From NCBI GenBank assembly GCA_039815185.1, contig JBCBZT010000050.1, forward strand, positions 1-54,441: a stretch of 54,441 nucleotides of DNA, written 5' to 3'. Source of the stretch: Cyanobacteria bacterium P01_A01_bin.123. Its GTDB lineage: Bacteria > Cyanobacteriota > Cyanobacteriia > Phormidesmidales > Phormidesmidaceae. A program made the position numbers and the translations under genes. A model generated the notes under the pieces. That model had not been told where the DNA came from, searched no databases, and saw nothing but the letters and a program-made list of their open reading frames with translations. Positions 1,931 through 54,441 of the stretch are shown one piece after another. Each line of letters begins with the position of its first letter. Position 1 is the stretch's first letter.

Positions 1931-2342
1931 GGGTTGGGGAATGGGGGGATTTTATCCCTTTATGGCATAGCAAGGCTGAGTTGGCGAGTGCTGGGTAGAA
2001 GAGCCGAGTGCCCATATGACGCGGAAGCTGCCTCGTGAGCTGCTGGGGCGGTTGGATCAGGCTTTTTATGCGAAGCAGGGCGATCGGCAGTTTTTGATGG
2101 GGGAGTAGGGGTAAACGTTATTGCGGTTGATATGCCTCCAGAAGCCCGCCAACAAGCCCACCTTGAAAAGGGCTGCGGGCTTTGCGCTCAAGTTGCTAGC
2201 CATACTGCCAAAGAACTGTCCCTAATACCGCCCAAAATCCTATGAAGACTCCTGTCTGCAATCAGACTAGCTGGCTGATATAGCCGTAGCCAGTCTGATT
2301 GGGACATAAACTAGAGAAGCATCCCCTGTCTATCTCAGACCT

Positions 2343-3270
2343 ATGGCCAAACCCTACAGTCTTGATTTCCGGCAAAAAGTCATCGACGCCATCGAACTCG
2401 ATGGTCTCAAAAAATGTGAGGCTAGCGAACTGTTCAATATCAGTCGCAACACCATCAATTTGTGGTTCCAGCGCAGAGCGGCAACCGGAGACCTCACCCC
2501 CAAGCCCCGTCAGAGCCGACCATTCCAGAATAGAATCAAAGACTGGGAGAAGTTTCGCCGCTTTGTGAAAGCCAATGGCGATAAGACCCAACAGGAAATG
2601 GCTGAGCTCTGGGATGAGCCGATTAGCCAAAGAACCATCTCGCGGGCGATCGCGAAGATTAGGCAGTCACGAAAAAGCGGTGCGACCCCGCGCCGTCGAA
2701 CGGCGCTAGGGAACGCGCACCAAGGCAAAGACGTACGGTTACCGCCAACGAGATGAAGCCAAACGGAGTGAGTTCCAGTGCCAAGTGAAAGACCCTAGAG
2801 CCCCGCATTTAGTTTATGTCGATGAGTCAGGGATGGATGAGCGGGACAACTACGGCTATGGTTATGCCCCCATCGGAGAACGCTACTACGCTCTCAAGTC
2901 AGGCCGACGGCAGAGTCGTATCAATATGATGGCAGGCTATCGGGGCACGCAACTGATTGCACCATTTACTATCGAGGGGGCTTGTAACCGCAGTGTCTTT
3001 GAAGGGTGGTTAGAAACTTGTCTGATGCCAGTGTTGCGTCCGGGAGACTGGGTGATTTTGGACAATGCTACCTTTCATCACGGGGGTCGGATTGCGGAAT
3101 TAATCGAAGCTGCTGGGTGTCAACTGCTTTATCTGCCACCGTATTCACCGGACTTGAATCGCATTGAAAAGTGCTGGGCTTGGTTGAAGAGCCGCATTCG
3201 TAAGCGACTTCCACAATCAGAGAGTTTACGGGCAGCAATGGAAGCGGTTCTCAGACATGCAGCGTCCTAA
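2343..3270 (+). pseudogene. IS630 transposase (OrfA HTH 2343..2756, OrfB DDE to 3270); frameshift site interrupted by a 50-bp insert
   Basis: MAKPYSLDFRQKV HTH start; YVDESG, ILDNATFH and LPPYSPDLNRIE DDE motifs; the A-run slippery site is split by 2677..2726. Confidence 0.8.
2677..2726. repeat. 50-bp GC-rich hairpin insert (small dispersed repeat-like)
   Basis: GGTGCG..CCC.GCGCCGT-CGA-ACGGCGC..GGG..CGCACC stem-loop between AAAAA and AAAGACG. Confidence 0.7.
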
Positions 3271-3966
3271 TCGATGTGGCTGCGGCTATAGGTGAAAAGC
3301 TGGAGAGGAAGTGATTAATCCCAAGCACACTTGAAACAGACACGATTGGAAACCAGCAGAACCAAGGGGTTCACTTCAGTGGGCTACGAAAGCCTTTCGC
3401 TACACTTGTCTCGCCTTCCAAAATACCGATATAGAGAATCGGATTAGGTGAAGTTGCTTTCCTAAATCAATCTAAAATTTTTAAATTTGCTTTACAATCG
3501 ACCATTGCAGTATGAGGATAGGTTATACAAGCAATATCCCTTCCGTAGTATTTACTTGGCTAGAGCTTTGATGTTCATTCTTTTGCCACAAAGGGGTATC
3601 TACTTAAAGTTCCTTGTTCGCTTAATCGACCTTAATCGAAGTATAAAAGTTTTATCTTTGTTGGGTTGTTGGGGCAATTTCTCTCTTTGCTACTTATTCC
3701 TGTGAATAGTTGAATGGAATACTACTTGCTCAATTCTTAGTGGTTAAAACTCAAGAAACCATGAGAAGAGGTGCATCTTTGTTTTGTTGGATAATTCCAT
3801 CTTTCTAGCAATTCCTTAACCATCTAGTTTTGATTTTTAACTACTTGGTTGAGATAAATTTCTGCATAACACCCATTCTAAAATGGGATCAAAAGCCATC
3901 GAAACCTATGCACTGCAGGTGTTCTCATGCGATGCATCACCCATAGTGCTATGCAGGTTTATGTCT

Positions 3967-4230: not shown

Positions 4231-4533
4231 ATGGCAAATACTTACGAAGTTATTTTGATTAATCCATCAGACGGGACCTTTCAAATGATTGAGGTTAAAG
4301 ACAATGAATACATACTTGATGCTGCTGAAGAGCAAGGACTAGATTTACCATATTCTTGTCGTGCAGGCGCTTGTACCACTTGTGCTGGATTTATTCTTGA
4401 GGGAGGTGTAGATCAGAGCGATCAGTCATTTCTAGATGATGATCAAATTGAAGCTGGCTTTGTACTAACTTGCGTAGCTTATCCTGTTTCAGATTGCACT
4501 ATTAGAACTCATCAATCTGAATCCTCATGGTAA
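4231..4533 (+). CDS. petF: Plant-type [2Fe-2S] ferredoxin
   Basis: [14 protein letters not shown]...[25 protein letters not shown] is the PetF-type signature with all four Cys ligands. Confidence 0.93.
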
Positions 4534-4566
4534 TGGATCAATTAAAGTAAGGCTTGTGAATTAATT

Positions 4567-7257
4567 ATGTCAAACTCAGAAAAAGAGCTTCTTGATGCTC
4601 TAGACAATATTAGTAAGCTTAATAGTCCATTTAAAAGGGCCTTAAAACTAGGAAATTTAGCCTCTGAGTTAACTACCCCTACTTTGCTTTTAACAGCATT
4701 AGAGATAGTTTCTAAGATTGATGAACCAGAAGCATGTGCTTTTGCACTTTCAAGTTTAAGTACCCGTTTAGATGACAGCCAGATTCTTGAGGGCCTCAGA
4801 ATAGCAAGCAGTATTGATATTTCAAACTCAAATCGTGATAGTGCCTTAGCCACTTTCAGGTCTAGACTTAGCCTTAATCTTGATTCCATGGCAGAAGCTT
4901 TGGAAGTAGCTAGAGGATTTGTTTCTATTAAGAGTTATCGCTCCAGTTCAGACTTTTTAGCGGAAGTTATTCCACATCTATCTCCTGAATTTCTGAAAGA
5001 AGCTTTAGAAATTGCTTATAAAATAGATGATAGCCAAGCAAGAGAAAGTCGTTTTGATGCGCTTACTGAACTTAATAAGATCTTGAGGCAATTATTCAAC
5101 TCTTCTAGCGAAGAATCAGCTTTTCGTGAATCCTATTTGCCTGATAGCTACCCATCTTATATTGATAGCAATTCTTCTAGTGGTTACCGAGCCAAAAGGA
5201 ATGAAGAAATCGACAGGGAATTCTGTGAGGCTCCGCGCGCTAGAGCTAAAGTTTTAGCATTGCTTTATTACTGCTTAAAAGAAGAGCAAAGATCTGAAGT
5301 TTTCGAAAAACTTTTAGAAGCTATTGAAGAAATTCCTGCTCAACCTTGTAAGGCACACACTCTTATAGCGCTATCTCCGCACCTGCCGAAGAATGCAGCT
5401 GTGAGAGTAGTACAAAGAGCCTTCACGATTGTAAAGGAAATTGTCGAAGATATTGATAACAGTCTTCAAGAAGAAAATGCTCCTCGGCTGAGAGAAGATA
5501 TTAATAAAATTCTTAATGACATCCAGGAACTGGAAAATCAGCTGCATACTCCATCAATCTCAACTTTATCAAGTGCAATCCTGGACAGACTGAGCTGGGC
5601 TGAATCGATCCTGTTTGATAATCGTTGGTGGAAACCAAATATGATCGAAGGTGTACCACCAGCATATATTCCAAAACTTCCTCTAGCTAAGGAAGTTACT
5701 AGGAGCGATCAGATAGAGACTGATAGTGATGTTGGAGGGGACACCACTCCTCAAACACACGTACGATATCCTAACCTTGTATGTCCGGACAACCTTGTCG
5801 TGAATGAAAGGGAAATTATTATTGTTAAGCTATTGCTTGATAAGCCCAACAATAAATCTGAGGGATTTTTGATTCCTGATAGTGGTACTGATGAGTTACC
5901 AAAAGTAAGTGTCGTATTAACTGCTCCAGGGTTTCATGTAGATAGGCATACTAAAACTCTTCAAGTTGAGCAAGACAAAAATTCAGAAGTACCTTTTGCT
6001 CTAACTCCTTTAGAACTAGGTCTTCACAAGATTACAGTAAGATTTTATCTGGATGACAACCTTGCAATTCTTGGCGTTATAGAGAAAAATGTTTTAGTTT
6101 CAGAACAGTATGCTTCGGAGGAAGTTCCTCAATATAATGAATCAGCAGTTATAAATATAGAAACAGAAGCAAAGACTTTTTTGCCTGCAACAGATTTGGA
6201 ATTGTTTGTCCATCTTAGTGCTGATAAACATAAACTTTCCTTTGGTTTGAGATCTGAAGATTACTTTGGAGATTATGGGGAAATTACTTTGAATTTCTCT
6301 CCCTTAAAAGAGATGGAAGCTAGATATAAAGAGCTGGATGAAAAGGCTAAAATAATTCCAGATACGACGGATCAAGAAAAGTCTTCCGAACGGCGACTGG
6401 CTGCAATAGGGAGAGAATTGTGGGATAAATATGTCCCTCAACCCCTTAAAGAGGAATATTGGGAATTTAAATCAAGCGTAAAGTCTATTCTCGTTGCTTC
6501 TCAAGAAGCATGGATCCCTTGGGAAATAATTAAGCCATATAGACTTAACAAAAAAGATAGAACACGTGAGGAGGATCCCTTCTGGTGTCAGCAATTTAAT
6601 ATTTCTCGATGGTTGCCTGTGCAAGGGGGAGGAGGATTGCCTGGTGATCTTGAGATTACAACGGTGAATCCTGTAGTCCCAAACAACACAGATTTGAAAG
6701 GTGCGAAAGACGAACTTGCATTTTTTGAGACAATTTCAACCCTGAACGAAAATATTAGACATCGTGTGCCTATTGATACTGTAATGCAGGTTTTAGATCG
6801 TTTAGAGAATGACAAGGAACTCTCAATTCTGCATTTTGCATGCCATGGAGCTTTTGATACAGGTTTATCGGATGAAGCAGCTATTAAACTGTCTGATGCA
6901 TCCTTACGGCCTAGCGATATTCAAATTTATTTGGATAAACAAGGGCGACGACCTTTGATCTTCATTAATGCATGTCATGTAGGAAGAGTTGGATACACTC
7001 CTACAGGACTAGGTGGGTGGGCTGAGAGAATGGTGAAATATCGTGTAGGAGCTTTTATTGGCGCAATGTGGGAAGTTACTGACGATCTAGCGCTCCAATT
7101 TGCTGAGACTTTCTATACAGGGCTTTTGAAGGACAAAAAAACAATTGCGGAAGCTTTCCGTCTGGCACGTGAAAAAATTCGACAACGCGCTCCCCATAAC
7201 TCCACCTGGCTGGCATACAGTCTTTATGCTGCTCCGGAGAGGAGATTAAGGGCATAG
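4567..7257 (+). CDS. CHAT (caspase-like) protease with N-terminal helical repeats and a central beta-rich domain
   Basis: C-terminal IPWEII, LHFACHG, FINACHVG, IGAMWEVTD and WLAYSLY motifs; catalytic His/Cys intact; N-terminal ALE(I/V)AxxI repeats. Confidence 0.88.
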   Translation: MSNSEKELLDALDNISKLNSPFKRALKLGNLASELTTPTLLLTALEIVSKIDEPEACAFALSSLSTRLDDSQILEGLRIASSIDISNSNRDSALATFRSRLSLNLDSMAEALEVARGFVSIKSYRSSSDFLAEVIPHLSPEFLKEALEIAYKIDDSQARESRFDALTELNKILRQLFNSSSEESAFRESYLPDSYPSYIDSNSSSGYRAKRNEEIDREFCEAPRARAKVLALLYYCLKEEQRSEVFEKLLEAIEEIPAQPCKAHTLIALSPHLPKNAAVRVVQRAFTIVKEIVEDIDNSLQEENAPRLREDINKILNDIQELENQLHTPSISTLSSAILDRLSWAESILFDNRWWKPNMIEGVPPAYIPKLPLAKEVTRSDQIETDSDVGGDTTPQTHVRYPNLVCPDNLVVNEREIIIVKLLLDKPNNKSEGFLIPDSGTDELPKVSVVLTAPGFHVDRHTKTLQVEQDKNSEVPFALTPLELGLHKITVRFYLDDNLAILGVIEKNVLVSEQYASEEVPQYNESAVINIETEAKTFLPATDLELFVHLSADKHKLSFGLRSEDYFGDYGEITLNFSPLKEMEARYKELDEKAKIIPDTTDQEKSSERRLAAIGRELWDKYVPQPLKEEYWEFKSSVKSILVASQEAWIPWEIIKPYRLNKKDRTREEDPFWCQQFNISRWLPVQGGGGLPGDLEITTVNPVVPNNTDLKGAKDELAFFETISTLNENIRHRVPIDTVMQVLDRLENDKELSILHFACHGAFDTGLSDEAAIKLSDASLRPSDIQIYLDKQGRRPLIFINACHVGRVGYTPTGLGGWAERMVKYRVGAFIGAMWEVTDDLALQFAETFYTGLLKDKKTIAEAFRLAREKIRQRAPHNSTWLAYSLYAAPERRLRA

Positions 7258-7316
7258 AGTTTCTTTGGGCAACCTATTAGTTCAATTAACCCATAGTTCA
7301 GTACTGGCAAGACCTT

Positions 7317-7802
7317 ATGACACAACTCGATGATCTGACGGAAAAGCTAGTCAAATTAGATGATGATCAATTAATGCTACATCTAGGGATGAGTACAAAA
7401 GGGATCAGTGAAGATCTCGGAGGCCAAACAAGAAGTGCATCGATTGATTCAATTGATCCTAGACGTTATGCAATTACTAGGTCCAATGAAGACACACTAA
7501 ATTTCGGGCAAAGGCTTTTCAAGCGTTTAAATGATGCGTCTTATGAGCTTCTATGCAAAGACCCCTTCGATGATGGGGAAACTTTACGAGAGCTAAGTAA
7601 AGTATTAGAGGATAGTACTGCGAAAGCTGCTGGACTTCTAGCACCTGTTTTAGTAGCTAATCTGGGTTTAGCTCCTGCTGTGGCTGCTATTGTTGCTACT
7701 TTGATTGTCAGAACTATTTCAAAAGCTATCGCAGATGAGATATGCTACACATGGGGGCGTAGTCTTGATACTTCTTCAAGAAGTAACTCTGACGCACAGT
7801 AG
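7317..7802 (+). CDS. Hypothetical helical protein with a hydrophobic C-terminal segment
   Basis: 161-aa ORF co-oriented 59 bp after the CHAT gene; hydrophobic LLAPVLVANLGLAPAVAAIVATLIV; stop codon 3 bp before the attC R'' box. Confidence 0.75.
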   Translation: MTQLDDLTEKLVKLDDDQLMLHLGMSTKGISEDLGGQTRSASIDSIDPRRYAITRSNEDTLNFGQRLFKRLNDASYELLCKDPFDDGETLRELSKVLEDSTAKAAGLLAPVLVANLGLAPAVAAIVATLIVRTISKAIADEICYTWGRSLDTSSRSNSDAQ

Positions 7803-7805
7803 ACG

Positions 7806-8581
7806 GGCTAATCGGGTAGCAGGGGGTTTCTCTCCCCCCACCCCCACGGCACCCCGCATGCGTGTCCGCACGGGGCGCTTCCTCGAAGAGGTTTAGACAA
7901 GCTGGTTCAACAGAACCGCTGTCCAGGGCTGGTTACGCAATTAAGCGCCGACAGTTTAGCTCCCCCATCCGGGTTCATTGCTGTGTCGAACTTTGTGGCT
8001 CCTCCCTGACTTCAAGGTTCGGCCCTTCACCGATGTCCCACCCATTACGGTGGGCATTTGGCTAATATGGCCTCTGCCCAATCACATCCGGCGTTTCCAC
8101 TGGATGCGCTGTCTGGAGAACCTTAGGGTTCTGTGGCTATCTAGCTCTTTCGGGCTAGACCTCAGTCAGACTCCCTCAGATCAACCGACTGCGCCTTGGG
8201 CAGACCTCCCCGGATAAGACTGTGAACTGTCACTGCACAACCGCGTCATTTACCGTGCTCCCTGAACCAATGGGCTTCGTTGTGGTGTGCCAACTTACCC
8301 AGGAGTCCCGGCCTGCTGTGACGTTTCTGTCCGTCGGCTCACAGCTTTCCGTTGGCTTCCTTCAGACCCTCCCTCGCGAGAGTGCCCTTGCCTTAAGCTA
8401 GTCGTTGGTGTCTCTCGGCTCCTATGACTTTCGAGCATTTGGACACTGGTTCTCCGACAGGGGACTTGCACCCCATTAGTTCACGCCCGTGCCGGGCGTA
8501 CACAAATCGTTGCAGCGGCGAGATGAACAATTCTAATAGAATATCGAAATTTCTAGTCGCCGCTGACCAGGAACGTTAAGC
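7806..8581 (+). other. Integron attC site (about 85 bp when rejoined) split by a group II intron
   Basis: Rejoined sequence GGCTA/ACAAATCGTTGCAGCGGCGA...TCGCCGCTGACCAGGAACGTTAAGC shows R'' (..TAAC), complementary L arms CAGCGGCGA/TCGCCGCTG and R' GTTAAGC (GTTRRRY). Confidence 0.8.
7811..8501 (-). mobile_element. ORF-less group IIC (attC-targeting) intron, 691 nt
   Basis: Minus-strand 5' end GTACGCCCGGCACGGG follows exon TTGT. Short domain V GAAGCGCCCCGTGCGGACACGCATGCGGGGTG has a CGC triad. Domain VI ends CTACCCGAT. No RT ORF. Confidence 0.88.
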
Positions 8582-8803: not shown

Positions 8804-9175
8804 ATGTCCACTATGTCTCCAAAGCTTAAGCTCTTTCTAGTCGTCTGCGCGATCGCCCTCCCCCTGGCCATATTGATTCGAGTCGTGGGCAACCGATTAC
8901 AGCCCCAGGTAGCATGCACTTGGCAGGAGAACGGCCAAAGACTGCGACGACGCCCCGGAAGGTGCTTTGATACTGAGGCCCAAGTAGGAGAAGCGACCAT
9001 CAGGCAGGCTGCCGGAATCAGCAAGTCTGACTTTCCCCAGACAGCGATCTGCTTCGCGATCGACGCTAAAGTTGTGGGTGAGCAGATGCAGTTAACCTTT
9101 GGTCTGCCGTCGTTTGTTGATAAACTCCTCAGCTTCCTCAAGTGTCTTGAACTTTTCTGGATAACGCTCCCTTAA
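8804..9175 (+). CDS. Possible small membrane-anchored hypothetical protein (3' end overlaps the convergent gene; may be truncated)
   Basis: ORF with a signal/TM-like N-terminus KLKLFLVVCAIALPLAILIRVV. Confidence 0.3.
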   Translation: MSTMSPKLKLFLVVCAIALPLAILIRVVGNRLQPQVACTWQENGQRLRRRPGRCFDTEAQVGEATIRQAAGISKSDFPQTAICFAIDAKVVGEQMQLTFGLPSFVDKLLSFLKCLELFWITLP

Positions 9176-12100
9176 AGCTGCGGGTAAGCGTTTCCAGTCC
9201 CTATCTCTATCAACCGCAATATCCGTAGGGAATGTAGCGCCGCAAATCAGGGGTGGTTCTTTTCCTTCTAGCTGCTGTTCAGTTAAATCTTTGACCTCAC
9301 GGAAGTCTGTCTCAAGCAGAATAGCGCTGTCGAGGTTAGCACTGGAGAGGTTAGCACTGGAGAGGTTAGCACTGGAGAGGTTGGCGCTGGAGAGGTTGGC
9401 GCTGGAGAGGTTGGCGCTGGAGAGGTTGGCACTGGAGAGATTAGCACTGGAGAGGTTAGTACTAGAGAGGTTAGCGCTGTCGAGGTTGGCGAGGGAGAGG
9501 TTGGCGAGGGAGAGGTTGGCGAGGGAGAGGTTGGCGCTGGAGTGATTAGCACTGGAGAGGTTAGCACTAGAGAGGTTAGCGCTGTCGAGGTTGGCGAGGG
9601 AGAGGTTGGCGAGGGAGAGATTAGCACTGGAGAGGTTAGCACTGGAGAGTTTGGCGCTGGAGAGGTTAGCACTATAGAGTTTGGCGCTGGAGAGATTAGC
9701 GCTGGAGAGGTTAGCACTGTAGAGTTTGGCGCTGTCGAGGTAGGCACTGTCGAGGTAGGCACTGTCGAGGTTAGCGCTGTAAAGGTTGGCTCTGCCGAGG
9801 TTGGCGCTGGAGAGGTTAGCGCTGGAGAGGTTAGCGCTGGAGAGGTTAGCGCTGGAGAGGTTGGCCCTGTCGAGTTTGGCGCTGGAGAGGTTAGCGCTGG
9901 AGAGGTTGGCCCTGTCGAGTTTGGCGCTGGAGAGGTTAGCGCTGGAGAGGTAAGTGCTGCAGAGGTCGGTGCTGGAGAGGTCGGCGCTGGAGAGGTCGGC
10001 GCTGGAGAGGTCGGCGTTGGAGAGTTTGGCGCTGGAGAGGTCGGCGTTGGAGAGTTTGGCGCTGGAGAGGTCGGCGTTGGAGAGTTTGGCGCTGTCGAGT
10101 TTGGCGCTGTCGAGTTTGGCGCTGGAGAGATGGGGGCCAACGAGCTGCGTGAAAGTTCCTGTTTCTAAAGAATCTGCATAGTAAATGATCTTGAGCAGTT
10201 GGTTTTTGTTAAAGGATTCTGTCTCCGGTTCACCACAAGGATGAAACGAGATCTCAGGCTTCGGTGCCTTCTCTGGCACATTGGGATAGTCCTCATGTTG
10301 AGCCTCCGCGTGCAGCTTAAACAACACAATCAGCACATTCAATCCGGCAAACACATCCACTTGCTTCAGCCCTGTCGGGATTGCTTGGTCTGCAAGCTGC
10401 CACATCTTCTTCTGAGGCCAATTTTCTGCAGGACGCTGATCTAGAAACTCCCCCTCACACCAGCGCTGGTAAAACCCATAGAGCCGCTCAAACAGCTTGA
10501 CTCGGTTCAGCTCACTCTCTTTCAGCAGTTCAAACAGATACTCCACAATCTCAACGCTGAGACCGCCATAGCCCAGTAGGTCATAAATCCGATCATCTAC
10601 TAGAGCATCATCCCGTAGATATTCCCCTTGGCGATCTAACTCTGTCCAGTCTTCAAAAGCAGCTTTGAGTCGTTCAGCAAAGAGGTATTCACCGAAGCTC
10701 TTATGGGTAAACTCCACTGACCCATCTCTATCACTCTCATCAGGCTTGAGGTAAAACGTGGTGAGGAGTTTGTTAAGTTGCCTATCATCTGAGTTCTCTG
10801 TAGCGGATTGAGACGGCTTGACGAAATTGTCTAGGGAAATCCTCGTACCCTTCAATCGATCCTTGAGCATTGACAATCGGGCTGTTTCATTCCCTGATTG
10901 CACCACACACAGGGCAGTCTCTTGCAACACTTTCCGCAGTTGTTCGGGTTTTCCCAAGCTCAGATTTAGACCCTGGCGCTGTTTCCCCAGCACCCAATTC
11001 ACTGACTCACGGTACACCCGCAATTTGGCCTGGACTTCCTGGTTTGCAATGTCAGCAAACATCTCACGCTTGAGATACCCCTCACGATGCAACCGTGCCA
11101 ACAGATAAAGAAGCAGCGGCTCTCGGGCCAAGTTATCAGCAATTTCGTCAGGGCAAGCCTCAAGAAACTTACGAAACTGATTGACTTCTGCTTCTTCAAA
11201 AATTGCTTGCCAGTTAGTCAGCCATTGCTCTCGCAGAGCATCACTCATAGGCTCAAGGCGCACCCGTTCGAGATTTGGGATTTGGGTAATCAACCGATCC
11301 ACCCCTTGCAACGCGAGTGGTCGCCCCGTCACGATGCATTGGTGGTGACTTTCCTTCTGAAAATCGACGACTTGCTGCAAAAACTCTTGCAGCCCACCTG
11401 TGGTTCTCCCCTCCAATAGCAACTCATCGAAGCCATCCAGGATGAGAAGAAACCGGGTATTGCGATCCGTTAGCCAGCCTGAATGATCTTGAACAAAATC
11501 GACGCTCTGTAGGTCAGGGCAATCTGTCAAGGTTTTTGTCAAGTTGTTAGCTAGCGTCCGAATATTGCGCAATCGAATCATGAGTGGAATGTACGCTCCC
11601 CCCATTTCTCGCCGTACCCAATCAGCGAATATGCGGCAAAAGACTGATTTCCCTCGACCAGCTTCCCCTTGGACAAACATCACCTTGCGGGGTTCACTTG
11701 GCTCTGCCAGCAAATGCTTTGCCCACTCGTGGATGTTGACCCGGCTAGCTCCCCGCTGCACTTCCCCATCTTGTATCAGTGGTTGCACCTCAAGGGGCAC
11801 ATAGATGTCTCGAAACCGAATCAGCGGGTTGCTCTCATCAAACACCTGTTCTTCAGGCAACGGCGCTATCTTCTCAGCCAGATAGGCGTCAATGCTGTCG
11901 TAGCGATCTTGCACCGCTCGTCCACCTGTCCGATAGACTTCAGCCAGCGGCTCTACACTATCACCTGCTTTGGCGATCGCTTCATAGAGATAGCGATGCG
12001 TGCCCCACACGACCTGCTCAGCTAAGCGATGCGTCTCAGCTTCATCAAGACCCGCTTGCTGCAACTGCTCAGTTAGTGCCCCTCCGAACTGCTCTGCCAA

Positions 12101-12607
12101 CACCGACTCTGGAAAGCGGCTGGTGACCACTTTGGCCTCTGCTGAGCTGAGTTCCTTCATCTCCAGACGCTTGAGCTGCTTCTCAACTAGGGTCTTGAGC
12201 GAGACCTGCTTGAGCTTGGTTTTGATGGCCTCATCCTTGACGTTTTTCAGTGCAACTTCGAGGCTTTGCAGATAGGCTAGTTGTGCAGCAATGGTGACAG
12301 CGCTTTCATAGGTGGGCTCGATTTTGGTCATGCCGAGGTATATCTTCAGCAGACCAATGCCGATGGAGACAAAGGGTAGTCCCGAGATGGCCAGTTGAGT
12401 GATCGGGGAGTCCAGGGTTTTGAGGAAGGGCTCTACCTGCTTGATATAGGGCTGAAGCGCTTTGATGTCAGGGGCGTGTTCTTGGAAGGCTTTACCTAAG
12501 TCATTGGTAGCAGTAACCGCCTCGATCCCCTTTTCGGTCAGTTCTCCCCAGGGAATGTCTTTGACGTCAGTGTTGAGGAACTGCCAGAACCCTTTCAAAG
12601 CTTGCAT
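9092..12607 (-). CDS. NACHT NTPase with C-terminal pentapeptide repeats
   Basis: Walker A GEAGRGKS, Walker [19 protein letters not shown] winged-helix motif, long A(N/D/K)LSS repeat tract. Confidence 0.92.
9325..10129. repeat. 15-bp tandem repeat tract encoding pentapeptide repeats
   Basis: Dozens of GAGAGGTTAGCGCTG-type units. Confidence 0.9.
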
Positions 12608-12704: not shown

Positions 12705-15569
12705 TCACTGCTGATGTTCTTTGACGTATTCTTGGGCTTGCTCAATGCTTTCAAATTCCTCTGGATATCTTTCCATCAAGACAGTAGCCATATCATCACA
12801 GTCTGTGTCCCGATCAATTTCAATGCCTTCAGGAAGAGGAGAATTACAAATCCAGGGTCGAAGCCCGATTAGCTGTTGGGTTGTGAGTCCTTGGGTAGTG
12901 CGTAGATCCGTATTGAGGAAGATCGCGACGGTGAGGTTGGCGGAGCTGAGATCGGCATTGCGTAGGTCGGCGTTGCGTAGGTCGGCGAAGATAAGGTTGG
13001 CGGAGTTGAGGTCGGTGTTGCGTAGGTCGGCGTCGAAGAGGTCGGCGGAAATGAGGGTGGCGTCATAGAGATTGGCGTCATAGAGGTCGGCCTCGCGGAG
13101 GGTGGCGTCGCGGAGGTCGGCGGAGCTGAGGTTGGCGGAGCTGAGATTGGCGGAGCTGAGGTTGGCGGAGCTGAGGTTGGCGGAGCTGAGGTCGCGGTTT
13201 GCCAGCGTTCGGCAATACTCTCCCCTAAAGCGCTCAGTTAGATATCCTGTGCGACGTTCCAATCGACTACAATCGTCCGTTAAAAATAAAACCGCACTAC
13301 GCTCTGCTTCTTTATCTCTTCCGTGATCTATCGTTGCGTAGTATTGCTCTACTTTACGTAGATGCAAAGAATAGTCCAACACAATTGCTGGGATGATTAA
13401 TAGCGCAACCCACCTACCTCGATTGAGTCGCTGCCATCGCCGACTTCGACGAATGAAGTCTTGCGCCAACCTTGACAACGGAAACTGATCACCATGGGCC
13501 TTCCGAAACCGCTGGGCATCCCCTAATTGACGTCCCTGAATCAAATACCCCCGCTTTCGCCCCTGCTCCCGCCAGGCCACCGCACTCGCCTCAATCTTGC
13601 GTTGTTGCCTCAGCAAGTCTCGGTTCTGCTCAATCCACTGCCGGAGTAGCTGCCAATGGCGAATCAGCGCTTCATGGGCCACATCCACAATCGCCATCCG
13701 CTCTGAGGTGTCGCCCTTGCTCACCACCTCACTGGTCACCAGCAACCGATTATCTGGGTTAGATAAGCGCTCAAGCACCTGCTGTACTCGTCTAGAGGGA
13801 TGCTTGGGCTCTGCCACCAAATCCGCCTGAAACACCCGCCTTCGGGTATCTTCTGTCCCTTCTCCGAGCTGGGTCAACTGCTGGAAGATATGGCGAACCG
13901 TTTGCTGCTCTGCTATGTCAAAGCTGTTGTAGATCTCGGTAGCTCGTTTATCCAAGGTGCCATTGATGCGACCCAACTCCAGATAGGTAGCCAACACAAG
14001 CTGGTTACCCTGCCGCTGTTGCCACAGTTCCTTCAGGGTGTACTGGAGCAATGGCAGACTCCCTGGTGCTCCTGCAATGTCACTCAAAATCTCGGTGACC
14101 AAAGCAGGTTCAATAGTGAGTCCCACTCGCTCAGCAGGCTTGCAGATGGCAGCTTCTAGCTCATCAGATTTCATGGGTAGCACGTTAATCATGTGCTCCT
14201 GAATCTGTGAAGCCAGCCCACTGTATTCCTGCTCCAAACACTTACCTACGAAGTCAGCCCGCACGGCAATCACCAGACAGAGCTTGTCATTAGCCTCAGC
14301 CAACGCCCCCATCAGACAGGCAAAGAACTGCTCCCGCTCCTCAAGACTTTGGCAACGGGTGAACACCTCCTCAAACTGGTCAATCACCAAGATGACCCGA
14401 GGGGCAGTAGAAGCCTGTACTAGCCGCTGTAGACCCGCTGCGCCTTCCTTGAGTAAGCCCTGGGCACTACCTAACGCCTCTGCCCGATCCAGGTCTGAGA
14501 GCCCCTCCTCAACAAATGCCAGGGCGAGGTTCTGCATCGGCTGACGATCTGGACGAGTGATGCGAATCCGCCACTGATCACTGCTTGCAATCCGTCGCCC
14601 TAGCTTGAGTTGATGCAGCAGCCCCGCTCGTAGTACAGATGACTTCCCATTACCCGATGCCCCCACTAGGGCCATGAAGTTGTGAGTTCGCACATGGTCG
14701 AGGAGCTGGCCAATCAGCCGCTCTCTGCCAAAGAAGTACTTGGGGTCTTCCTCGTTACAGTCGAAGTACTCCAACCCCTTGTAGGGACAAATGCCACTGT
14801 CTGAAGCACTCGTAGCCGTTGCACGCTCTAAAACCTTCAAGCTTCTAGTCAGATTAATCGCCTCGCCAAAGTTGGTACAGACTGGGGTTTGCAGCTCCCC
14901 TTTGAGGGCTTGATTGATATAGTCCACCAAGGCAAAGGTATCGATCCATCGCCCTGGCAGTCGGGTAGGATCAAGCCCTTTAAGCAAGGCATTCGTGAGC
15001 ACACTGTAGGGACTGTTGAGGTCTTCCCAAGAGCTTTCAAAGTCACGAGAGGAAGCAATGAAGCAGCGATCGCGACTGGTACTGTTACCCGGATTAGCTG
15101 CCCCAACATTGACGATGAGTGAACCACTGTGACAGCAGTCGAGCCAGACGATTTGTTGCTTGACTTCACTCTCAGATAAGAGCCATTGCAGCCAGCGCAG
15201 AGAGAGGCCAGAACGAGGATAGTCAGGATCGGTGTCACTGGTTGCCAGATACCCCTGGTCATATCCCCTGCTATCAGGGATACCGTGTCCTGAGAAGTAG
15301 AACAGCACCGTCTCTGGTACTTGTGTACTATTCGGTAAGAAGAGCTTCTCTAAGGCCCGCTCTAGCTGCATCTGAGAGACTGCTGTTTTTTGGGCCACCA
15401 TAGGCTTTTTCAGCTCAGCCTGCTGAATCACCTCAGGTAGTCGAGTGACGCGGAAGTCGCCATCTTGTTCGAGCCGTTGGGTAACAGCTTCAGCGTCTTG
15501 AGCTGGGGCTTTGAGGGAGCGTAGGTGCTGGTAGGTGTTAATGCCAATAACTAGGGCATCACGGCTCAT
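12705..15569 (-). CDS. Caspase (peptidase C14) + nSTAND1-type NTPase + TM helix + pentapeptide repeats
   Basis: ALVIGINTY, FYFSGHG and WLDCCHSG caspase motifs; CPYKGL, GASGNGKSS, VIDQFEEVF and VAHEALIRHW NTPase motifs; WVALLIIPAIVL TM; ANLSS/ADLR repeats. Confidence 0.92.
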   Translation of the reverse strand: MSRDALVIGINTYQHLRSLKAPAQDAEAVTQRLEQDGDFRVTRLPEVIQQAELKKPMVAQKTAVSQMQLERALEKLFLPNSTQVPETVLFYFSGHGIPDSRGYDQGYLATSDTDPDYPRSGLSLRWLQWLLSESEVKQQIVWLDCCHSGSLIVNVGAANPGNSTSRDRCFIASSRDFESSWEDLNSPYSVLTNALLKGLDPTRLPGRWIDTFALVDYINQALKGELQTPVCTNFGEAINLTRSLKVLERATATSASDSGICPYKGLEYFDCNEEDPKYFFGRERLIGQLLDHVRTHNFMALVGASGNGKSSVLRAGLLHQLKLGRRIASSDQWRIRITRPDRQPMQNLALAFVEEGLSDLDRAEALGSAQGLLKEGAAGLQRLVQASTAPRVILVIDQFEEVFTRCQSLEEREQFFACLMGALAEANDKLCLVIAVRADFVGKCLEQEYSGLASQIQEHMINVLPMKSDELEAAICKPAERVGLTIEPALVTEILSDIAGAPGSLPLLQYTLKELWQQRQGNQLVLATYLELGRINGTLDKRATEIYNSFDIAEQQTVRHIFQQLTQLGEGTEDTRRRVFQADLVAEPKHPSRRVQQVLERLSNPDNRLLVTSEVVSKGDTSERMAIVDVAHEALIRHWQLLRQWIEQNRDLLRQQRKIEASAVAWREQGRKRGYLIQGRQLGDAQRFRKAHGDQFPLSRLAQDFIRRSRRWQRLNRGRWVALLIIPAIVLDYSLHLRKVEQYYATIDHGRDKEAERSAVLFLTDDCSRLERRTGYLTERFRGEYCRTLANRDLSSANLSSANLSSANLSSANLSSADLRDATLREADLYDANLYDATLISADLFDADLRNTDLNSANLIFADLRNADLRNADLSSANLTVAIFLNTDLRTTQGLTTQQLIGLRPWICNSPLPEGIEIDRDTDCDDMATVLMERYPEEFESIEQAQEYVKEHQQ

Positions 15570-18013: not shown

Positions 18014-20179
18014 CTAAACAACAGATGGCGTCTCCAAACTGGCAAAGTGTTTTCGTAGTAGGTCATGCATGAAGCGATAACGCCCCCCAACACGCTGAAT
18101 GAAGCGATGATTTTCTGCATGTTCGAGGAACTTTGCATAGTCCCACGGGCTCACACCTGATTGATAGAGCGCTAGGCGTAGGGACAAGTGTTGAAGCGCA
18201 GCACCTAGCCCGACGATCAGCCCGCCAATTAGCCCGCCAATTAGCCCGAAACTCAGTCCGAAACTCAGTCCGAAATTTAGCCCCCCAGTCAGCCCGCCAA
18301 TTAGCCCGCTACTGAGTCCAACACTTAGCCCGACCGTCAACCCGCCACTCAGCCCAAAAATCAGGCCAAAAATCAGGCCGTTCTTTTTTGATTGTTGAAT
18401 TCCTTGATTTGGATATTTCTTGCTATCTAGATCAACTTCAATCCCCTGAAACCCACCAATCAGTCCAACACTCAGCCCGATACTCAAGCCGACACTCAGC
18501 CCGAAAAGCAGTCCATTACTCAGTCCGATACCGAGCCCAGTAATTAGCCCAAAAATTAGCCCGACAATCAGCCCGCCGCTTAGCCCATCACGGGCAAACT
18601 GCTGCCATGAGAAACGCAAAGCTTCTGCCGATTTGATATTATTCAGCCCACCACTCAGCCCGAAAATCAGTCCACTAATCAGCCCGCCAATCAGCCCAAA
18701 AATCAGTCCGTCACTTAACGCCCCAGCCAGCCCGCCAATCAACCCACCACTGAGTCCGCTAGTCAGCCCAACGCTCCAAAGATAACGAGTCCAATCGCGC
18801 TGTCTATCCAACCAAGAGGGCTGCAACCGCTCAATCAGAAACTCCGTTGTACCTACAGCTTCCAATTTCCCCGCCAGCCAAGACAGGTAATGCTGTGTTT
18901 GCTCTAGGCTAGGTGCCTGCCCTGGAGGATAAGCGCCTTGATTATTCAAATCACTGAGCTGCTTATTGATATAGGTATCTAGCAACGCTTCTACACTGCT
19001 AATCGTTTGCCCCTGGTACGCCACCACCAAGATCAGCAGAAATAATGGAGAGCGAACCAGTTCCAATAGGTCAGGCTGGCTTTGCAAGGCATTCCACAAT
19101 GGGACACGATTCAACCGCTGGAGGTAATCTTGAATCTGTTCATCGTCTAACGCTTGCAGATAGATAGCCCCGTTCAAGCGCTTCAAGGATTCATTCTCAG
19201 CTTCGAGGGCTTCATATTCCTTGCGCCGACAACAGACCACCATTGAGAGCGCGTGTATATCCAGAAACGCATTGATCGCCCGAATGCACTTAATCTGCTT
19301 AGCTTTTCGACGCGCTTTGATTTCCTTGGTTGTCGATGCATCACCCCCATCCACCCGTCTCAGCTCATCTAAACCATCAAGTAATGGCAACAGTTGATTC
19401 TGCTGAATCCAGTGCTGAGAAACCACTTTGGGGACGGTGTATTTCTCCAAAAGCTGAGCACTTAGCCAGTCATCAAACGTGCTCTCATCTGCCCATTCCG
19501 AGAGTTCAAAGATGACAGGGATGGGGAGGTCTGGGTCTTGCTGGGCTTTGTGCAGGAGTTCCCTGGCTAGTACCAGCAACTCATTGGTTTTGCCAGAACC
19601 GGGTTCACCCAGAATCAGGAGGCGACCTTGGATGTCGTCTTGTTCAAACAGCCCTAGCGTCAATTGCTCCACCTTGGCAGACTCAGATGGTGTTGAGGTA
19701 TTGAACGTATTGAGCCAGCGCTTAATTAAGGGCTCCGGGGTTAATTCCGCTGGCTCTGGGGGTAAATCACGCTTTCCCACCCGCTGGCGTTGCTCTTCCC
19801 GCTTCAAGTCCATCCGTACCTTGTAATGCAGAGAGCTGTCTAAGCGGATCACCACCTGCTCAAGGACAACCTCAATGAGCTGTCGCCGCAGCTTTTGGCG
19901 TACTTCATCGGTGATCTCTGCTTTCGTAGGGACAAGGTACTTGCGAATGAACTCGATGATTTTGCCCAGGTTGCCTGTCCATGCAGCGATCGCAGCAGTC
20001 GCTAGAGCAATCACCGCAAATCCAGCCATCCCCCAACCTATGACGGGGTTCTGGTTGAGGAAGTTGAGGATTTGCTCTAGCTTGGTGGGCTCAGGTGTTG
20101 GGGTGTCCAGGTCAGCTTGAGCCAGCAGCGTAGTCAACAAGGGCCACATCATCACATCGAGATATCCCACAGCTGCCAT
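18014..20179 (-). CDS. NACHT NTPase with N-terminal TM and C-terminal Gly-rich transmembrane repeats
   Basis: GEPGSGKT, LLDGLDE, GLIFGL/GLSGG repeats, GGRYRFMHDLLRKHF C-terminus; true start may be the ATG near 20152. Confidence 0.9.
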   Translation of the reverse strand: MAAVGYLDVMMWPLLTTLLAQADLDTPTPEPTKLEQILNFLNQNPVIGWGMAGFAVIALATAAIAAWTGNLGKIIEFIRKYLVPTKAEITDEVRQKLRRQLIEVVLEQVVIRLDSSLHYKVRMDLKREEQRQRVGKRDLPPEPAELTPEPLIKRWLNTFNTSTPSESAKVEQLTLGLFEQDDIQGRLLILGEPGSGKTNELLVLARELLHKAQQDPDLPIPVIFELSEWADESTFDDWLSAQLLEKYTVPKVVSQHWIQQNQLLPLLDGLDELRRVDGGDASTTKEIKARRKAKQIKCIRAINAFLDIHALSMVVCCRRKEYEALEAENESLKRLNGAIYLQALDDEQIQDYLQRLNRVPLWNALQSQPDLLELVRSPLFLLILVVAYQGQTISSVEALLDTYINKQLSDLNNQGAYPPGQAPSLEQTQHYLSWLAGKLEAVGTTEFLIERLQPSWLDRQRDWTRYLWSVGLTSGLSGGLIGGLAGALSDGLIFGLIGGLISGLIFGLSGGLNNIKSAEALRFSWQQFARDGLSGGLIVGLIFGLITGLGIGLSNGLLFGLSVGLSIGLSVGLIGGFQGIEVDLDSKKYPNQGIQQSKKNGLIFGLIFGLSGGLTVGLSVGLSSGLIGGLTGGLNFGLSFGLSFGLIGGLIGGLIVGLGAALQHLSLRLALYQSGVSPWDYAKFLEHAENHRFIQRVGGRYRFMHDLLRKHFASLETPSVV

Positions 20180-48116: not shown

Positions 48117-49778
48117 TCAGCGAATGACCAATTGCGCGAACAAACCGCCTTCACCCATCCATTCTTTTTCAAGTAATCGCACTTCTAGTTCAATGAGGCG
48201 GCGGTAGGTCATTGAATACTGAATAACTGGGTGCTTCCATTTTTCTTCTTTGCGCCGTTCATAGAGACCGATAAATTTGCGCCGCCCTTCTTGGCTGAGC
48301 CAAACCTGTTCACCCGTAATCTCAAAATCAATCTCTGGATCCCACTGATTGCGGTTGATCGAGGCGATCACGGGCATGTCTACCAGGGGCACTCGAAAGA
48401 TTTCCATCAGGTCGAGGGCTAACGGGGGAGCTTGCCTGTGGGGCTGGTGATAGAAGCCCAGGCTGGGTTCTAGACCAACGGTCAGAATGGCGTTCATGAC
48501 GTCTTTGAGGAGTAGCGCATAGCCAAAGCCCAACATGGCATTGAAGCGATCCTTAGGGGGACGGCGATTACGTCCAGTGAATTGGAATTCGGGTGCTGCG
48601 GTTGTCAAAAGCAAGTTGGGCAAGGCTTTGAAATAAAGCGCGGCTAAATTTCCCTCTAAGCCCAGCAGAGAGCCGATCGCATCTGACTGTGGCACTTGCT
48701 TTAGCGTGCGCTGCATTTGTTCGATGGTCTGCTCTAGGGTTGTTTCGGCGTTTTTAGCATTGCGCAGGGCACGCATTAGAAATTTGCGCTGGCTCTGGCC
48801 TCGACAGGTGACCAGTTGACGCGCCAATGCTAGACATTGGTTGGGATCGGTTAGGGCTTGATATTGGCGAATGCGACGCTGGATGTTGCCTTGGCGGGTG
48901 TCGAAGCTGCTGAGGTAACGACCATGGCCTGAGATAAAGTGCAGTCCGATCTCGCGTTCGGCACAGAAGTACATTGCTTGGGTTGAGATCTGTACGTAGC
49001 TGTGGAGCACCAGTTGCCCAACTTGACGGGAGGGCAATGAGTTAGTTGTCCCGTCTCGTTTCTTAATTTTGAATTGTTCGCCAGTTTTACCGATTGAGGT
49101 GCCGGATTCTGTGACGTGGATGATTTTGCGTTCGTCGTCTTCGGGGAATAATCTCAGGGGTTGCTCGGTAGTGCCTTGGGCTAGGCGGGTTTCTTCAGGT
49201 AGGCAGATGGTAGCTAGGGAGCAACGGGTGCAGAGTTGCTGGTTTGAGGTGATGGGAGGGCGTTCTAGGGATGCTTGAAGTTGTTTGGCTTGTTCGATGG
49301 CGGCTAGAACGTCTTGGCGACCTTTCTCATCGAAGGGGATGTGGACTAACGCATTATCGGTGTGGTAGCGAATTCGGCCTTCTTGTACGGTGATGTCTAA
49401 TTCTGCTTCGATCAGATAGGCGTAGGCGAGGATTTGAATGCGATCGCTTTCCCAAGCTTGGGGCTGATTATTTTCATCTCTATAACTGCGACCTTTTTTG
49501 TGCTCGTAAGGGATAGTTTGACCTGCTCTAGTTTTGAGGGCGTCAACTTTACCTCGTAAGCCTAGCTGAGCATTTTCTAAGACTAATTGTTGCCAATCTT
49601 CACCGCCTTCGCGTTCTAGTTCTGCATGGAGTCTCAAGCCTGAATAGATTTCTGCGTTGGCCTCGTGTATACCTTCGACGTATTGCAAATAATACTGACG
49701 CGGACAGTAAGCTAATGCATTTAGAGCACTGACATAAATAGTGTCTTGCTCTTGATTAGCAGGTGACATGGTGCCCAT
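48117..49778 (-). CDS. cas1: Cas4-Cas1 fusion (MYXAN-like)
   Basis: Cas4 part: YCPRQ, RGKVD, EHKKG, QILAY, CTRCSLATIC. Cas1 part: LGLEG, RNRRPPKDRFNAMLGFGY, GFYH, ALDLMEIFR. Confidence 0.93.
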   Translation of the reverse strand: MGTMSPANQEQDTIYVSALNALAYCPRQYYLQYVEGIHEANAEIYSGLRLHAELEREGGEDWQQLVLENAQLGLRGKVDALKTRAGQTIPYEHKKGRSYRDENNQPQAWESDRIQILAYAYLIEAELDITVQEGRIRYHTDNALVHIPFDEKGRQDVLAAIEQAKQLQASLERPPITSNQQLCTRCSLATICLPEETRLAQGTTEQPLRLFPEDDERKIIHVTESGTSIGKTGEQFKIKKRDGTTNSLPSRQVGQLVLHSYVQISTQAMYFCAEREIGLHFISGHGRYLSSFDTRQGNIQRRIRQYQALTDPNQCLALARQLVTCRGQSQRKFLMRALRNAKNAETTLEQTIEQMQRTLKQVPQSDAIGSLLGLEGNLAALYFKALPNLLLTTAAPEFQFTGRNRRPPKDRFNAMLGFGYALLLKDVMNAILTVGLEPSLGFYHQPHRQAPPLALDLMEIFRVPLVDMPVIASINRNQWDPEIDFEITGEQVWLSQEGRRKFIGLYERRKEEKWKHPVIQYSMTYRRLIELEVRLLEKEWMGEGGLFAQLVIR

Positions 49779-50021
49779 GATGATTTTCAGGATGTTGATG
49801 TGTGGGACAAATTAGTTCACATTAACTATGGCGATTCCCTGAGATTTATCTACATTACTATTGCTCCCGAATGCGCAAAATAATTTGTCTGGGAGATCAC
49901 GGGATTTCATACGTCAATACATCTGTATTTCCTGGGGATCATGGAGATTCAAGTGAACTATTCTAGTGAAATCAGCGCTAATATTTTCTCCTTTTAGGTA
50001 GATAATCATCTAGACAAAAAC

Positions 50022-50061
50022 GAAACCCGAATTTGAATGTATGCATTCAAATTCGGGTTTC
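50022..50061 (-). terminator. Perfect 18-bp-arm hairpin at the array end; likely terminator of minus-strand pre-crRNA
   Basis: GAAACCCGAATTTGAATG-TATG-CATTCAAATTCGGGTTTC, followed on the minus strand by GTTTTTG. Confidence 0.6.
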
Positions 50062-54440: not shown

Positions 54441-54441
54441 G

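Follow-up and report, generated by a model that had tools for sequence, protein, structure and literature searches.

A conserved and mobile cyanobacterial cassette joining a PetF-type ferredoxin, a CHAT protease and a small helical protein: a candidate protease-effector conflict system

Three closely spaced genes on contig JBCBZT010000050.1 of Cyanobacteria bacterium P01_A01_bin.123 (assembly GCA_039815185.1), whose whole length of 54,441 nucleotides was analysed and is referred to here as the window, encode a PetF-type ferredoxin, a CHAT protease with N-terminal helical repeats and an immunoglobulin (Ig)-like domain, and an all-helical protein of 161 amino acids (aa). We conclude that this trio is a real, conserved and mobile cassette, apparently undescribed. 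In the scheme that we infer, which comprises the binding, the cut sites, the membrane insertion, the bait role, the phage trigger and the defence function, a specialised PetF copy would dock as bait on the N-terminal helical region of the protease, and a phage protein binding, modifying or competing for the host ferredoxin would disturb this bait. The CHAT protease would then be released, probably with cleavage of itself at R379 in a linker, and would cut the 161-aa protein after R55 in a disordered loop, thus freeing a C-terminal hairpin part that may insert in the membrane and stop the infected cell, most likely as an abortive anti-phage response. Taken as a whole, this chain from ferredoxin bait to arrest on infection is in our judgement a nearly even call, with doubt slightly prevailing. 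Since the bait reading and a competing one, in which the ferredoxin is a redox sensor, share one circuit, a three-part protease-effector system is rather probable over both.

The first-pass annotation of this region had described three co-oriented genes separated by 33 bp (ferredoxin-protease) and 59 bp (protease-small protein), which the coordinates of the three intact open reading frames (ORFs) bear out, and a lack of co-occurrence elsewhere had been named beforehand as part of the refuting condition. The trio was found in identical gene order at three loci: the window, Anabaena catenula (L021) and a metagenome contig (L101). Among 50 genome loci retrieved with the small-protein alignment, L021 was the only one having ferredoxin, full-length protease and small gene together; L022 has protease and small gene, its contig terminating within the protease. 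When metagenomes were scanned with the N-terminal module of the protease, the L101 contig, with the full trio, was the sole locus returned out of 285 candidate stretches. The viral contigs searched held no relative of this module or of the small protein, and the plasmids searched held none either. For all three genes, the three pairwise comparisons of these loci gave nonsynonymous divergence (dN) of 0.10-0.35 versus synonymous divergence (dS) of 0.73-1.56, the dS being alike among the genes; all three are under purifying selection. Given that the trio recurs, that the small protein tracks caspase-like proteases and that ferredoxin-CHAT fusions exist, as detailed below, the earlier proposal is not refuted, and its idea of one conflict-type module including the ferredoxin gains support from the genomics on these same counts.

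The mobility of the cassette is most evident at L101, where the trio is flanked by two attC-like single-strand hairpins (z-score, z, of -6.2 at the 5' side, one arm departing from the core consensus, and -3.0 at the 3' side, an uninterrupted site at 4467-4572); this trio appears to be one integron cassette bracketed by attC-like hairpins. In the window, the left arm of the 3' attC-like site is the same as at L101 and stands directly after the stop codon, followed by a group II intron; site and intron directly 3' of the third gene, and an IS630 element upstream, are additions to the first-pass annotation. By position and orientation the intron is of the IIC-attC type, and its longest stop-free stretch has 61 codons. 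Group IIC-attC introns are inserted in the bottom strand of attC, opposite to the cassette genes, and the multi-gene integron cassettes that carry them, as far as the accessible part of that report describes them (PMC3001079), resemble ours in having an attC right after the last gene and a bottom-strand intron; ours differs in its length of about 3.9 kb, its three genes, an intron without ORF and the lack of an integrase on the contig. The host genome encodes an integron integrase scoring over the cut-off on another contig (C36). It also holds at least seven partial relatives of the intron at contig ends (C21, C123, C47, C133, C131, C103 and C11), and two other intron copies are followed by attC-like sequence as judged by eye. 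At L021 a 5' attC was not evident, and the sequences preceding the trio at its three loci gave no useful alignment. Integron cassettes often encode anti-phage systems, according to the available portion of a recent report (10.1101/2024.07.02.601686). The trio block has a guanine-cytosine (GC) content of 0.39-0.41 versus 0.50 genome-wide, and a promoter scan stayed at chance level (9 versus 10.5).

The small protein is modelled as all-helical with a mean predicted local distance difference test (pLDDT) of 81.6, and its best 19-residue hydropathy, 2.2, starts from residue 113. Of the long hydrophobic helix that had been read in it, the hydrophobic stretch stands and the single helix does not, the model presenting a helix-Gly/Pro-helix hairpin (101-116, 120-158). 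There are 51 close homologs, and clustering at 50% leaves 488 representatives of the family. Among the 170 members with a length of 140-190 aa, C80 is found in every one and C143 in 169, W146 and G64 are near-invariant, and the hydrophobic hairpin is kept (hydropathy of at least 1.6 in 168). The protein gave no Pfam or meaningful NCBIfam match, 60 family members compared with NCBIfam yielded two single stray matches and no named family, and the ESM Atlas returned only unnamed clusters. A PDB sequence search reached E 0.09 at best, and the fold searches (Foldseek, best E 0.62; VIA-align, best Z 5.0 with a root mean square deviation of 2.1 over 59 residues), which bear on the helical pore-forming folds colicin, Bcl-2 and HeLo, produced no clear match and listed weak BAK/BAX rows that are not significant. 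In its genomic setting, the small protein tracks caspase-like proteases: at 37 of the 50 loci a CHAT or caspase (C14) gene is no further than 2 kb away, and at 40 no further than 4.3 kb, the corresponding figures for 4941 random spots of our own genome being 2.3% and 4.5%. The ten loci with no nearby protease all have a flank shorter than 2.4 kb on one side. Protease detection relied on hidden Markov models (HMMs) of 17 domain pieces, two taken from the window and the remaining 15 from analysed loci or proteins; Pfam applied to 40 selected neighbours independently recovered CHAT or C14 at 12 loci, two of them archaeal. Among 20 representatives scanned, the small domain is also fused to CHAT (P0160, P0179) and to a C14 caspase (P0176). 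Three lysozyme/pesticin-like multidomain proteins (P0060, P0061, P0135) carry up to three tandem small helical domains at their C-terminal end and Arg-Glu-Ser/Ala-Ala motifs in their linkers.

The protease matches Pfam CHAT (PF12770) with 50.6 bits versus a cut-off of 24, and it has an intact His-Cys dyad of H760 and C803. Its AlphaFold model (mean pLDDT 76, predicted TM-score 0.44, from a 20-row alignment) has helical repeats spanning residues 5-349; Pfam and model together confirm the CHAT protease with intact His/Cys, helical repeats and central beta domain reported in the first pass. The further idea that the central domain is TCAD7-like was not sustained: no match to TCAD7 (PF19973) appeared in the window at E <=10 or for the isolated domain at E <=5, and the term is absent from the main text of PMC7159879. 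This Ig-like domain has structural look-alikes in CHAT, TIR and kinase-TCAD9 proteins, and only unnamed clusters match it in the ESM Atlas. The best Foldseek matches of the protease model are 7zoq (E 2e-9), 8d9h and 8tl0, and the model resembles TPR-CHAT, SAVED-CHAT and separase structures. Borvo (BovA) was rejected as a candidate, the match being confined to residues 748-876 (E 6e-5) and not full length. The N-terminal repeats are a putative sensor or ferredoxin dock. C220 and C261 are invariant in the 13 rows with the helical module, which also precedes other CHAT subtypes and a TIR domain; in P0210 it is joined to TIR_2 in place of CHAT. Conversely, the module of Ig-CHAT plus small gene occurs with other N-termini, these being HEAT repeats (L064) or unnamed domains (L023, L024, L026).

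The position at which the protease would act can be read from its partner and from its own linker. R55 closes the low-confidence loop of the small protein, and Arg occupies this position in 55 of 57 close members; the 113 distant members mostly have Met/Leu followed by Gly. Loci with this CHAT subtype or a C14 neighbour have Arg or Lys at the loop site, and the three cases of a second CHAT subtype (L067, L070, P0179) have Gln-Met-Gly. The protease linker has the Thr-Arg motif in all nine proteins combining this N-terminal module with this CHAT subtype, and in none of four with the same module and a different subtype; at L021 (~5340-5600) the linker is enlarged by acidic Tyr-Asp-Val-Glu repeats and the motif appears twice. 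A cut after R55 is predicted because the small-protein loop and the protease linker share a Thr-Arg motif that changes with the subtype, and R379 in the linker is the predicted self-cleavage site. The pattern suggests that the loop may be a substrate matched to its protease and that the protease may process itself. In separase, D2151 binds the Arg preceding the cut (P1), and it corresponds to K670 of TPR-CHAT (PMC9729208, in the part of that article available). An Asp of this type was considered as the basis of Arg specificity and rejected. D839 is found in the Thr-Arg subtype and not in the Met-Gly subtype, which is a correlation only. According to the accessible text of 10.1101/2021.06.07.447441, cleavage of the Runella gasdermin takes place at a Leu-Gly within an exposed loop, and the available text of 10.1101/2023.06.23.546230 gives no cut site.

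As to the ferredoxin, its PetF type was confirmed by a TIGR02008 (fdx_plant) score of 153.8 bits versus a cut-off of 81.15 and by the presence of the four cluster cysteines C43, C48, C51 and C81, Fer2 being matched at E 7e-23. The host petF, encoded elsewhere in the genome, is 74% identical to the cassette copy; a phage origin was not supported, since the phage ferredoxins reach no more than 68% identity in the 15 records listed out of 283. The three linked ferredoxins form a supported clade (96/84) separate from host PetF in a tree of 33 domains, made up of 6 free ferredoxins and 27 chosen fusions; P0206, a fusion described below, has no settled place in it. The linked copies have Phe/Leu instead of the usual Lys after the third Cys, Leu being also found in P0206, and in all three of them the acidic C-terminal tail is replaced and Trp is the C-terminal residue. 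The acidic C-terminal tail of ferredoxin serves FNR binding. This linked-type pattern was found in our own genome only (1/401) and in 0/400 other genomes. Phage ferredoxin-binders exist, since the phage protein PebS attaches to the cluster face of host-type ferredoxin (10.1101/2025.07.23.666280, accessible part); in our own mapping from that source the PebS-contact residues are mostly kept in the linked ferredoxin, exceptions being the Ser beside the second Cys and the C-terminal Leu. The gene lies upstream at the three readable loci with the N-terminal module of the protease, and at none of the four loci in which a different N-terminus precedes this Ig-CHAT (L023, L024, L026, L064); by this arrangement the ferredoxin appears to go with the sensor end of the protease. 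In the wider module of protease plus small protein it is optional. The prediction of a complex between ferredoxin and full-length protease lends weak support to their binding, with a score of 0.50 (best of three controls, 0.00), a contact agreement between runs of at least 63% and a partner pLDDT of 81. Of 157 solved complexes 116 attained the mark used, as did 2 of 215 mismatches; only 18 of the 157 solved complexes did so with a score of at most 0.60, and so did both mismatches.

A search for longer ferredoxin-containing proteins, of which the best 120 of 324 were considered, showed ferredoxin and CHAT also joined in one polypeptide. In P0206 and P0217 a ferredoxin is fused in frame, N-terminally, to the same repeat-Ig-CHAT architecture; ferredoxin-CHAT fusions account for 4 rows, and in other CHATs the ferredoxin is internal (P0234, P0253) or C-terminal (P0302). 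Further partners are Sacsin plus NOV_C (10 rows), NOV_C alone (5), KGK (3) and alpha/beta hydrolase (2), with single rows for a kinase, an Hsp70-TPR and a pentapeptide protein, and many eukaryotic precursors are in the list as well. Both hydrolase fusions lack one cluster cysteine, a different one each, a loss that may be compatible with a bait role. The ~1870-aa Sacsin-ATPase plus NOV_C proteins with a C-terminal PetF-like ferredoxin fall in 10 separate 90% clusters (P0240, P0256, P0259, P0264, P0275, P0280, P0284, P0292, P0298, P0307) and represent a second, commoner ferredoxin-bearing conflict-type protein.

Several observations weigh against the proposed bait, cut and membrane steps. The trio was not found in two samples of 400 other cyanobacterial genomes, its known extent being three loci and one ferredoxin-protease fusion cluster; 49 of the 50 small-protein loci show no ferredoxin, and no 5' attC was found in the window (z -0.9). 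The enrichment of proteases near the small gene is overstated, owing to kinship among the Microcoleus loci, HMM seeds partly drawn from the same loci and a control genome that is not Microcoleus. The co-variation of the P1 residue depends on only three second-subtype cases and is confounded by ancestry, and the four proteases that share the subtype but differ in their N-termini lack the linker motif at this place. A separase-type Arg pocket is absent, since the position of D2151/K670, eight residues past the Trp of the aligned motif, is L843 in the cassette protease. The hydrophobic hairpin is Ala/Gly-rich and could be simply a buried core. The linked ferredoxins retain all four cluster cysteines, which fits a working redox protein equally, and the change at their Lys site is no sign of lost function because 17 of 118 other ferredoxins have Ile/Val there. 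The list of fusions also has single housekeeping cases such as GAPDH, PsaE and cyclophilin, which may be assembly chimeras.

The bait scheme has to be compared with other explanations of the same genes. The closest keeps the circuit and makes the ferredoxin a working redox/iron sensor whose oxidation state or cluster loss gates the protease, reporting photosynthetic electron flow and perhaps acting through C220/C261 or C80/C143. The cysteines of both proteins are conserved as this demands (13/13 rows for the former pair; 170/170 and 169/170 for the latter), and the linked copies keep cluster ligands and cluster-face residues; yet two other ferredoxin fusions have lost cluster ligands, families without ferredoxin retain the small-protein cysteines all the same, and the tail concerned with FNR binding is altered in 3/3 linked copies. 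We deem a sensor of this kind unlikely, although worth keeping in view. It is somewhat doubtful too, and to a degree that we would call distinctly unlikely, that the small protein regulates, as securin-like inhibitor, pseudo-substrate or adaptor, a caspase-like protease whose real targets are host proteins. Its association with unrelated proteases (CHAT subtypes and a C14 caspase-nSTAND1-WD40), also in cis, its three tandem copies ending lysozyme-like proteins and the lack of a match to a known pore former would agree with such a role; a hydropathy of at least 1.6 in 168/170 members speaks against it, a single loop motif following the protease subtype suits a substrate, and gasdermin operons, to go by the available text of 10.1101/2021.06.07.447441, as a rule combine a protease with an effector that it cleaves.

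In another explanation, after the manner of HetF, the genes would serve signalling or programmed death in filamentous cyanobacteria, in development, kin conflict or stress and without relation to phages. The patchy, low-GC, cassette-borne occurrence, with NACHT and caspase-STAND genes as neighbours on a conjugative contig, and the variable N-terminal domains on a constant protease, make this improbable, even though the family occurs mainly in filamentous genera, Microcoleus for instance (12/25 genomes of one family), and many Microcoleus loci sit in conserved chromosomal contexts. The rarity of ferredoxin at small-protein loci noted above, together with petF being small and common, could also mean that the ferredoxin is a passenger captured by the cassette and that only protease and small protein cooperate. 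We give very little credence to this, for the linked copies form a clade of their own, are under purifying selection with dS like that of their neighbours, and share the Leu at the Lys site with an in-frame fusion to the same architecture. PetF-like domains in other CHAT proteins, in repeated independent fusions, and in Sacsin/NOV_C proteins likewise argue that the ferredoxin is no passenger.

By analogy, the cassette would seem to work like a gasdermin-type protease-effector system, yet it fails membership of every named family tested. Bacterial gasdermin-CHAT/caspase operons, in the accessible part of their description (10.1101/2021.06.07.447441), likewise place a repeat-bearing caspase-like protease beside an effector with a cut in an exposed loop, predicted in our case, and the Met/Leu-Gly of distant small-protein members recalls the Leu-Gly of the Runella gasdermin. 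As far as that text allows the comparison, the partner here differs in being a 161-aa all-helical protein, the predicted cut would remove an N-terminal and not a C-terminal piece, and a ferredoxin is included; no gasdermin model of Pfam, PADLOC or NCBIfam matched the small protein. Type III-E Craspase (Csx29/Csx30) and SAVED-CHAT share the sensor-CHAT layout and the neighbouring substrate, the latter predicted in our case, and they are the best Foldseek matches; the cassette differs from them by lacking a Cas7-11, SAVED or Csx30 match and by having an extra Ig-like domain and another helical module. Craspase was rejected, the flanks being IS630, NACHT and caspase-nSTAND1 with no PADLOC match to Craspase components for the three genes, and the only cas gene among the 31 window ORFs scanned is a Cas4-Cas1 about 40 kb from the trio. 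The PADLOC candidate system PDC-M35 (M35A plus M35B) likewise pairs a protease gene with a small helical gene directly behind it, and PDC-M35B weakly matches all 35 aligned small-protein relatives (best E 1.6e-8). Its M35A, however, is trypsin-like and has no model match on the contig, where the upstream gene is a CHAT, and true M35B proteins score 136-152 bits and lack the two cysteines, as opposed to 13-16 bits for the cassette protein. PDC-M35 membership was rejected on this M35B score of about one tenth that of true members and a profile comparison probability of 1%; the small protein may be at most a remote relative. Eight genomes of a single genus have genuine PDC-M35 pairs, trypsin-like then M35B, at one locus (L107-L114), and at the four PDC-M35 loci read M35B continues into an antitoxin-like C-terminal tail.

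In plant nucleotide-binding leucine-rich repeat (NLR) receptors, integrated decoy domains are copies of host targets placed beside or inside immune proteins, at varying position and sometimes without catalytic or ligand residues. The cassette resembles them in placing a copy of a would-be host target beside or inside an immune-type protein, with occasional loss of key residues, and differs in being bacterial and protease-based with a photosynthetic electron carrier as putative bait. The first-pass statement that no described system has this trio agrees with the literature searched, in which none was found. Our full-text searches, outside which most subscription papers lie, returned no paper with PDC-M35, none joining CHAT, ferredoxin, caspase, anti-phage and cyanobacteria, and none joining integrated decoy, bacterial, phage and ferredoxin; 'ferredoxin' is absent from the main text of PMC7159879 and PMC8195603, and 'M35' from that of 10.1101/2024.01.29.577857. 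The sensing principle is possibly new. It is tempting to speculate, and here we are frankly tentative, that PetF copies act as integrated decoys on unrelated effectors and that the 161-aa family represents new caspase-activated helical membrane effectors with a co-evolving cut site. The effectors would then include CHAT (with ferredoxin at three positions), Sacsin/NOV_C nuclease-like proteins, hydrolases, kinases and TIR-type partners, the bait being a separate gene or a fused domain, and the decoys would guard a central electron hub against hijacking phage proteins. Cyanophages are known to draw on ferredoxin; if true, bacterial innate immunity would be tied to photosynthetic electron flow, with a bacterial counterpart of the plant integrated-decoy receptors. 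A family still unnamed, with at least 488 representatives in bacteria and archaea, would also receive a role and an exact predicted cut site (R55; R379 for self-cleavage), and many caspase-like proteases beside this family have no known substrate. The whole cassette is below 4 kb and testable as a single unit.

Table 1. Features of the cassette and its immediate borders (positions in the window)
Feature	Position	Strand	Remarks
Ferredoxin gene	4231..4533	+	100 aa; ORF call
Repeat-Ig-CHAT protease gene	4567..7257	+	896 aa; ORF call
Helical repeats, residues ~5-178	4579..5100	+	akin to repeats of long cyanobacterial proteins, at least one annotated NB-ARC
Conserved helical module, residues ~204-360	5176..5646	+	invariant C220, C261; WWxP motif
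Disordered linker, residues 365-393	5659..5745	+	Glu-x-Thr-Arg motif, R379
Unnamed Ig-like beta-sandwich, residues 396-512	5752..6102	+	AlphaFold model
CHAT protease region, residues 544-896	6196..7254	+	H760 = 6844-6846, C803 = 6973-6975
Small helical protein gene	7317..7802	+	161 aa; ORF call
Small protein features	7317..7802	+	disordered loop ~32-55, R55 = 7479-7481; hydrophobic hairpin ~101-131
attC-like site closing the cassette	7805-7810 + 8502-8581	+	split by intron; right part z -3.0
ORF-less group II intron	7811..8501	-	~690 nt; RF02001 110.5 bits
IS630-family element	2279..3291	+	split transposase, terminal inverted repeats; context, outside the proposed system

The ferredoxin search brought up additional families with a PetF-like domain. 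P0231, P0233, P0235, P0243 and P0245 form a family of 220-240 aa in which an unnamed N-terminal domain of ~120 aa precedes the ferredoxin. Two other unnamed families have a C-terminal PetF, one (P0230/P0246) with a faint nucleoside deoxyribosyltransferase-like match (E 0.06) and the other (P0265/P0274/P0287) with a hydrophobic N-terminal stretch.

The window, which is the entire 54-kb contig, also holds conjugation genes, NACHT and caspase-nSTAND1 genes and the Cas4-Cas1. NACHT-membrane, NNH3-NACHT-pentapeptide and caspase-nSTAND1-pentapeptide genes lie around the cassette at 2-1930, 9092-12607, 12705-15569 and 18014-20179, and this cluster is a conflict-gene island on a conjugative contig. 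The Cas4-Cas1 fusion occupies 48117-49778 on the minus strand and is neighboured by a low-GC stretch (~50000-54441) with no ORF of at least 100 aa, possibly a CRISPR array.

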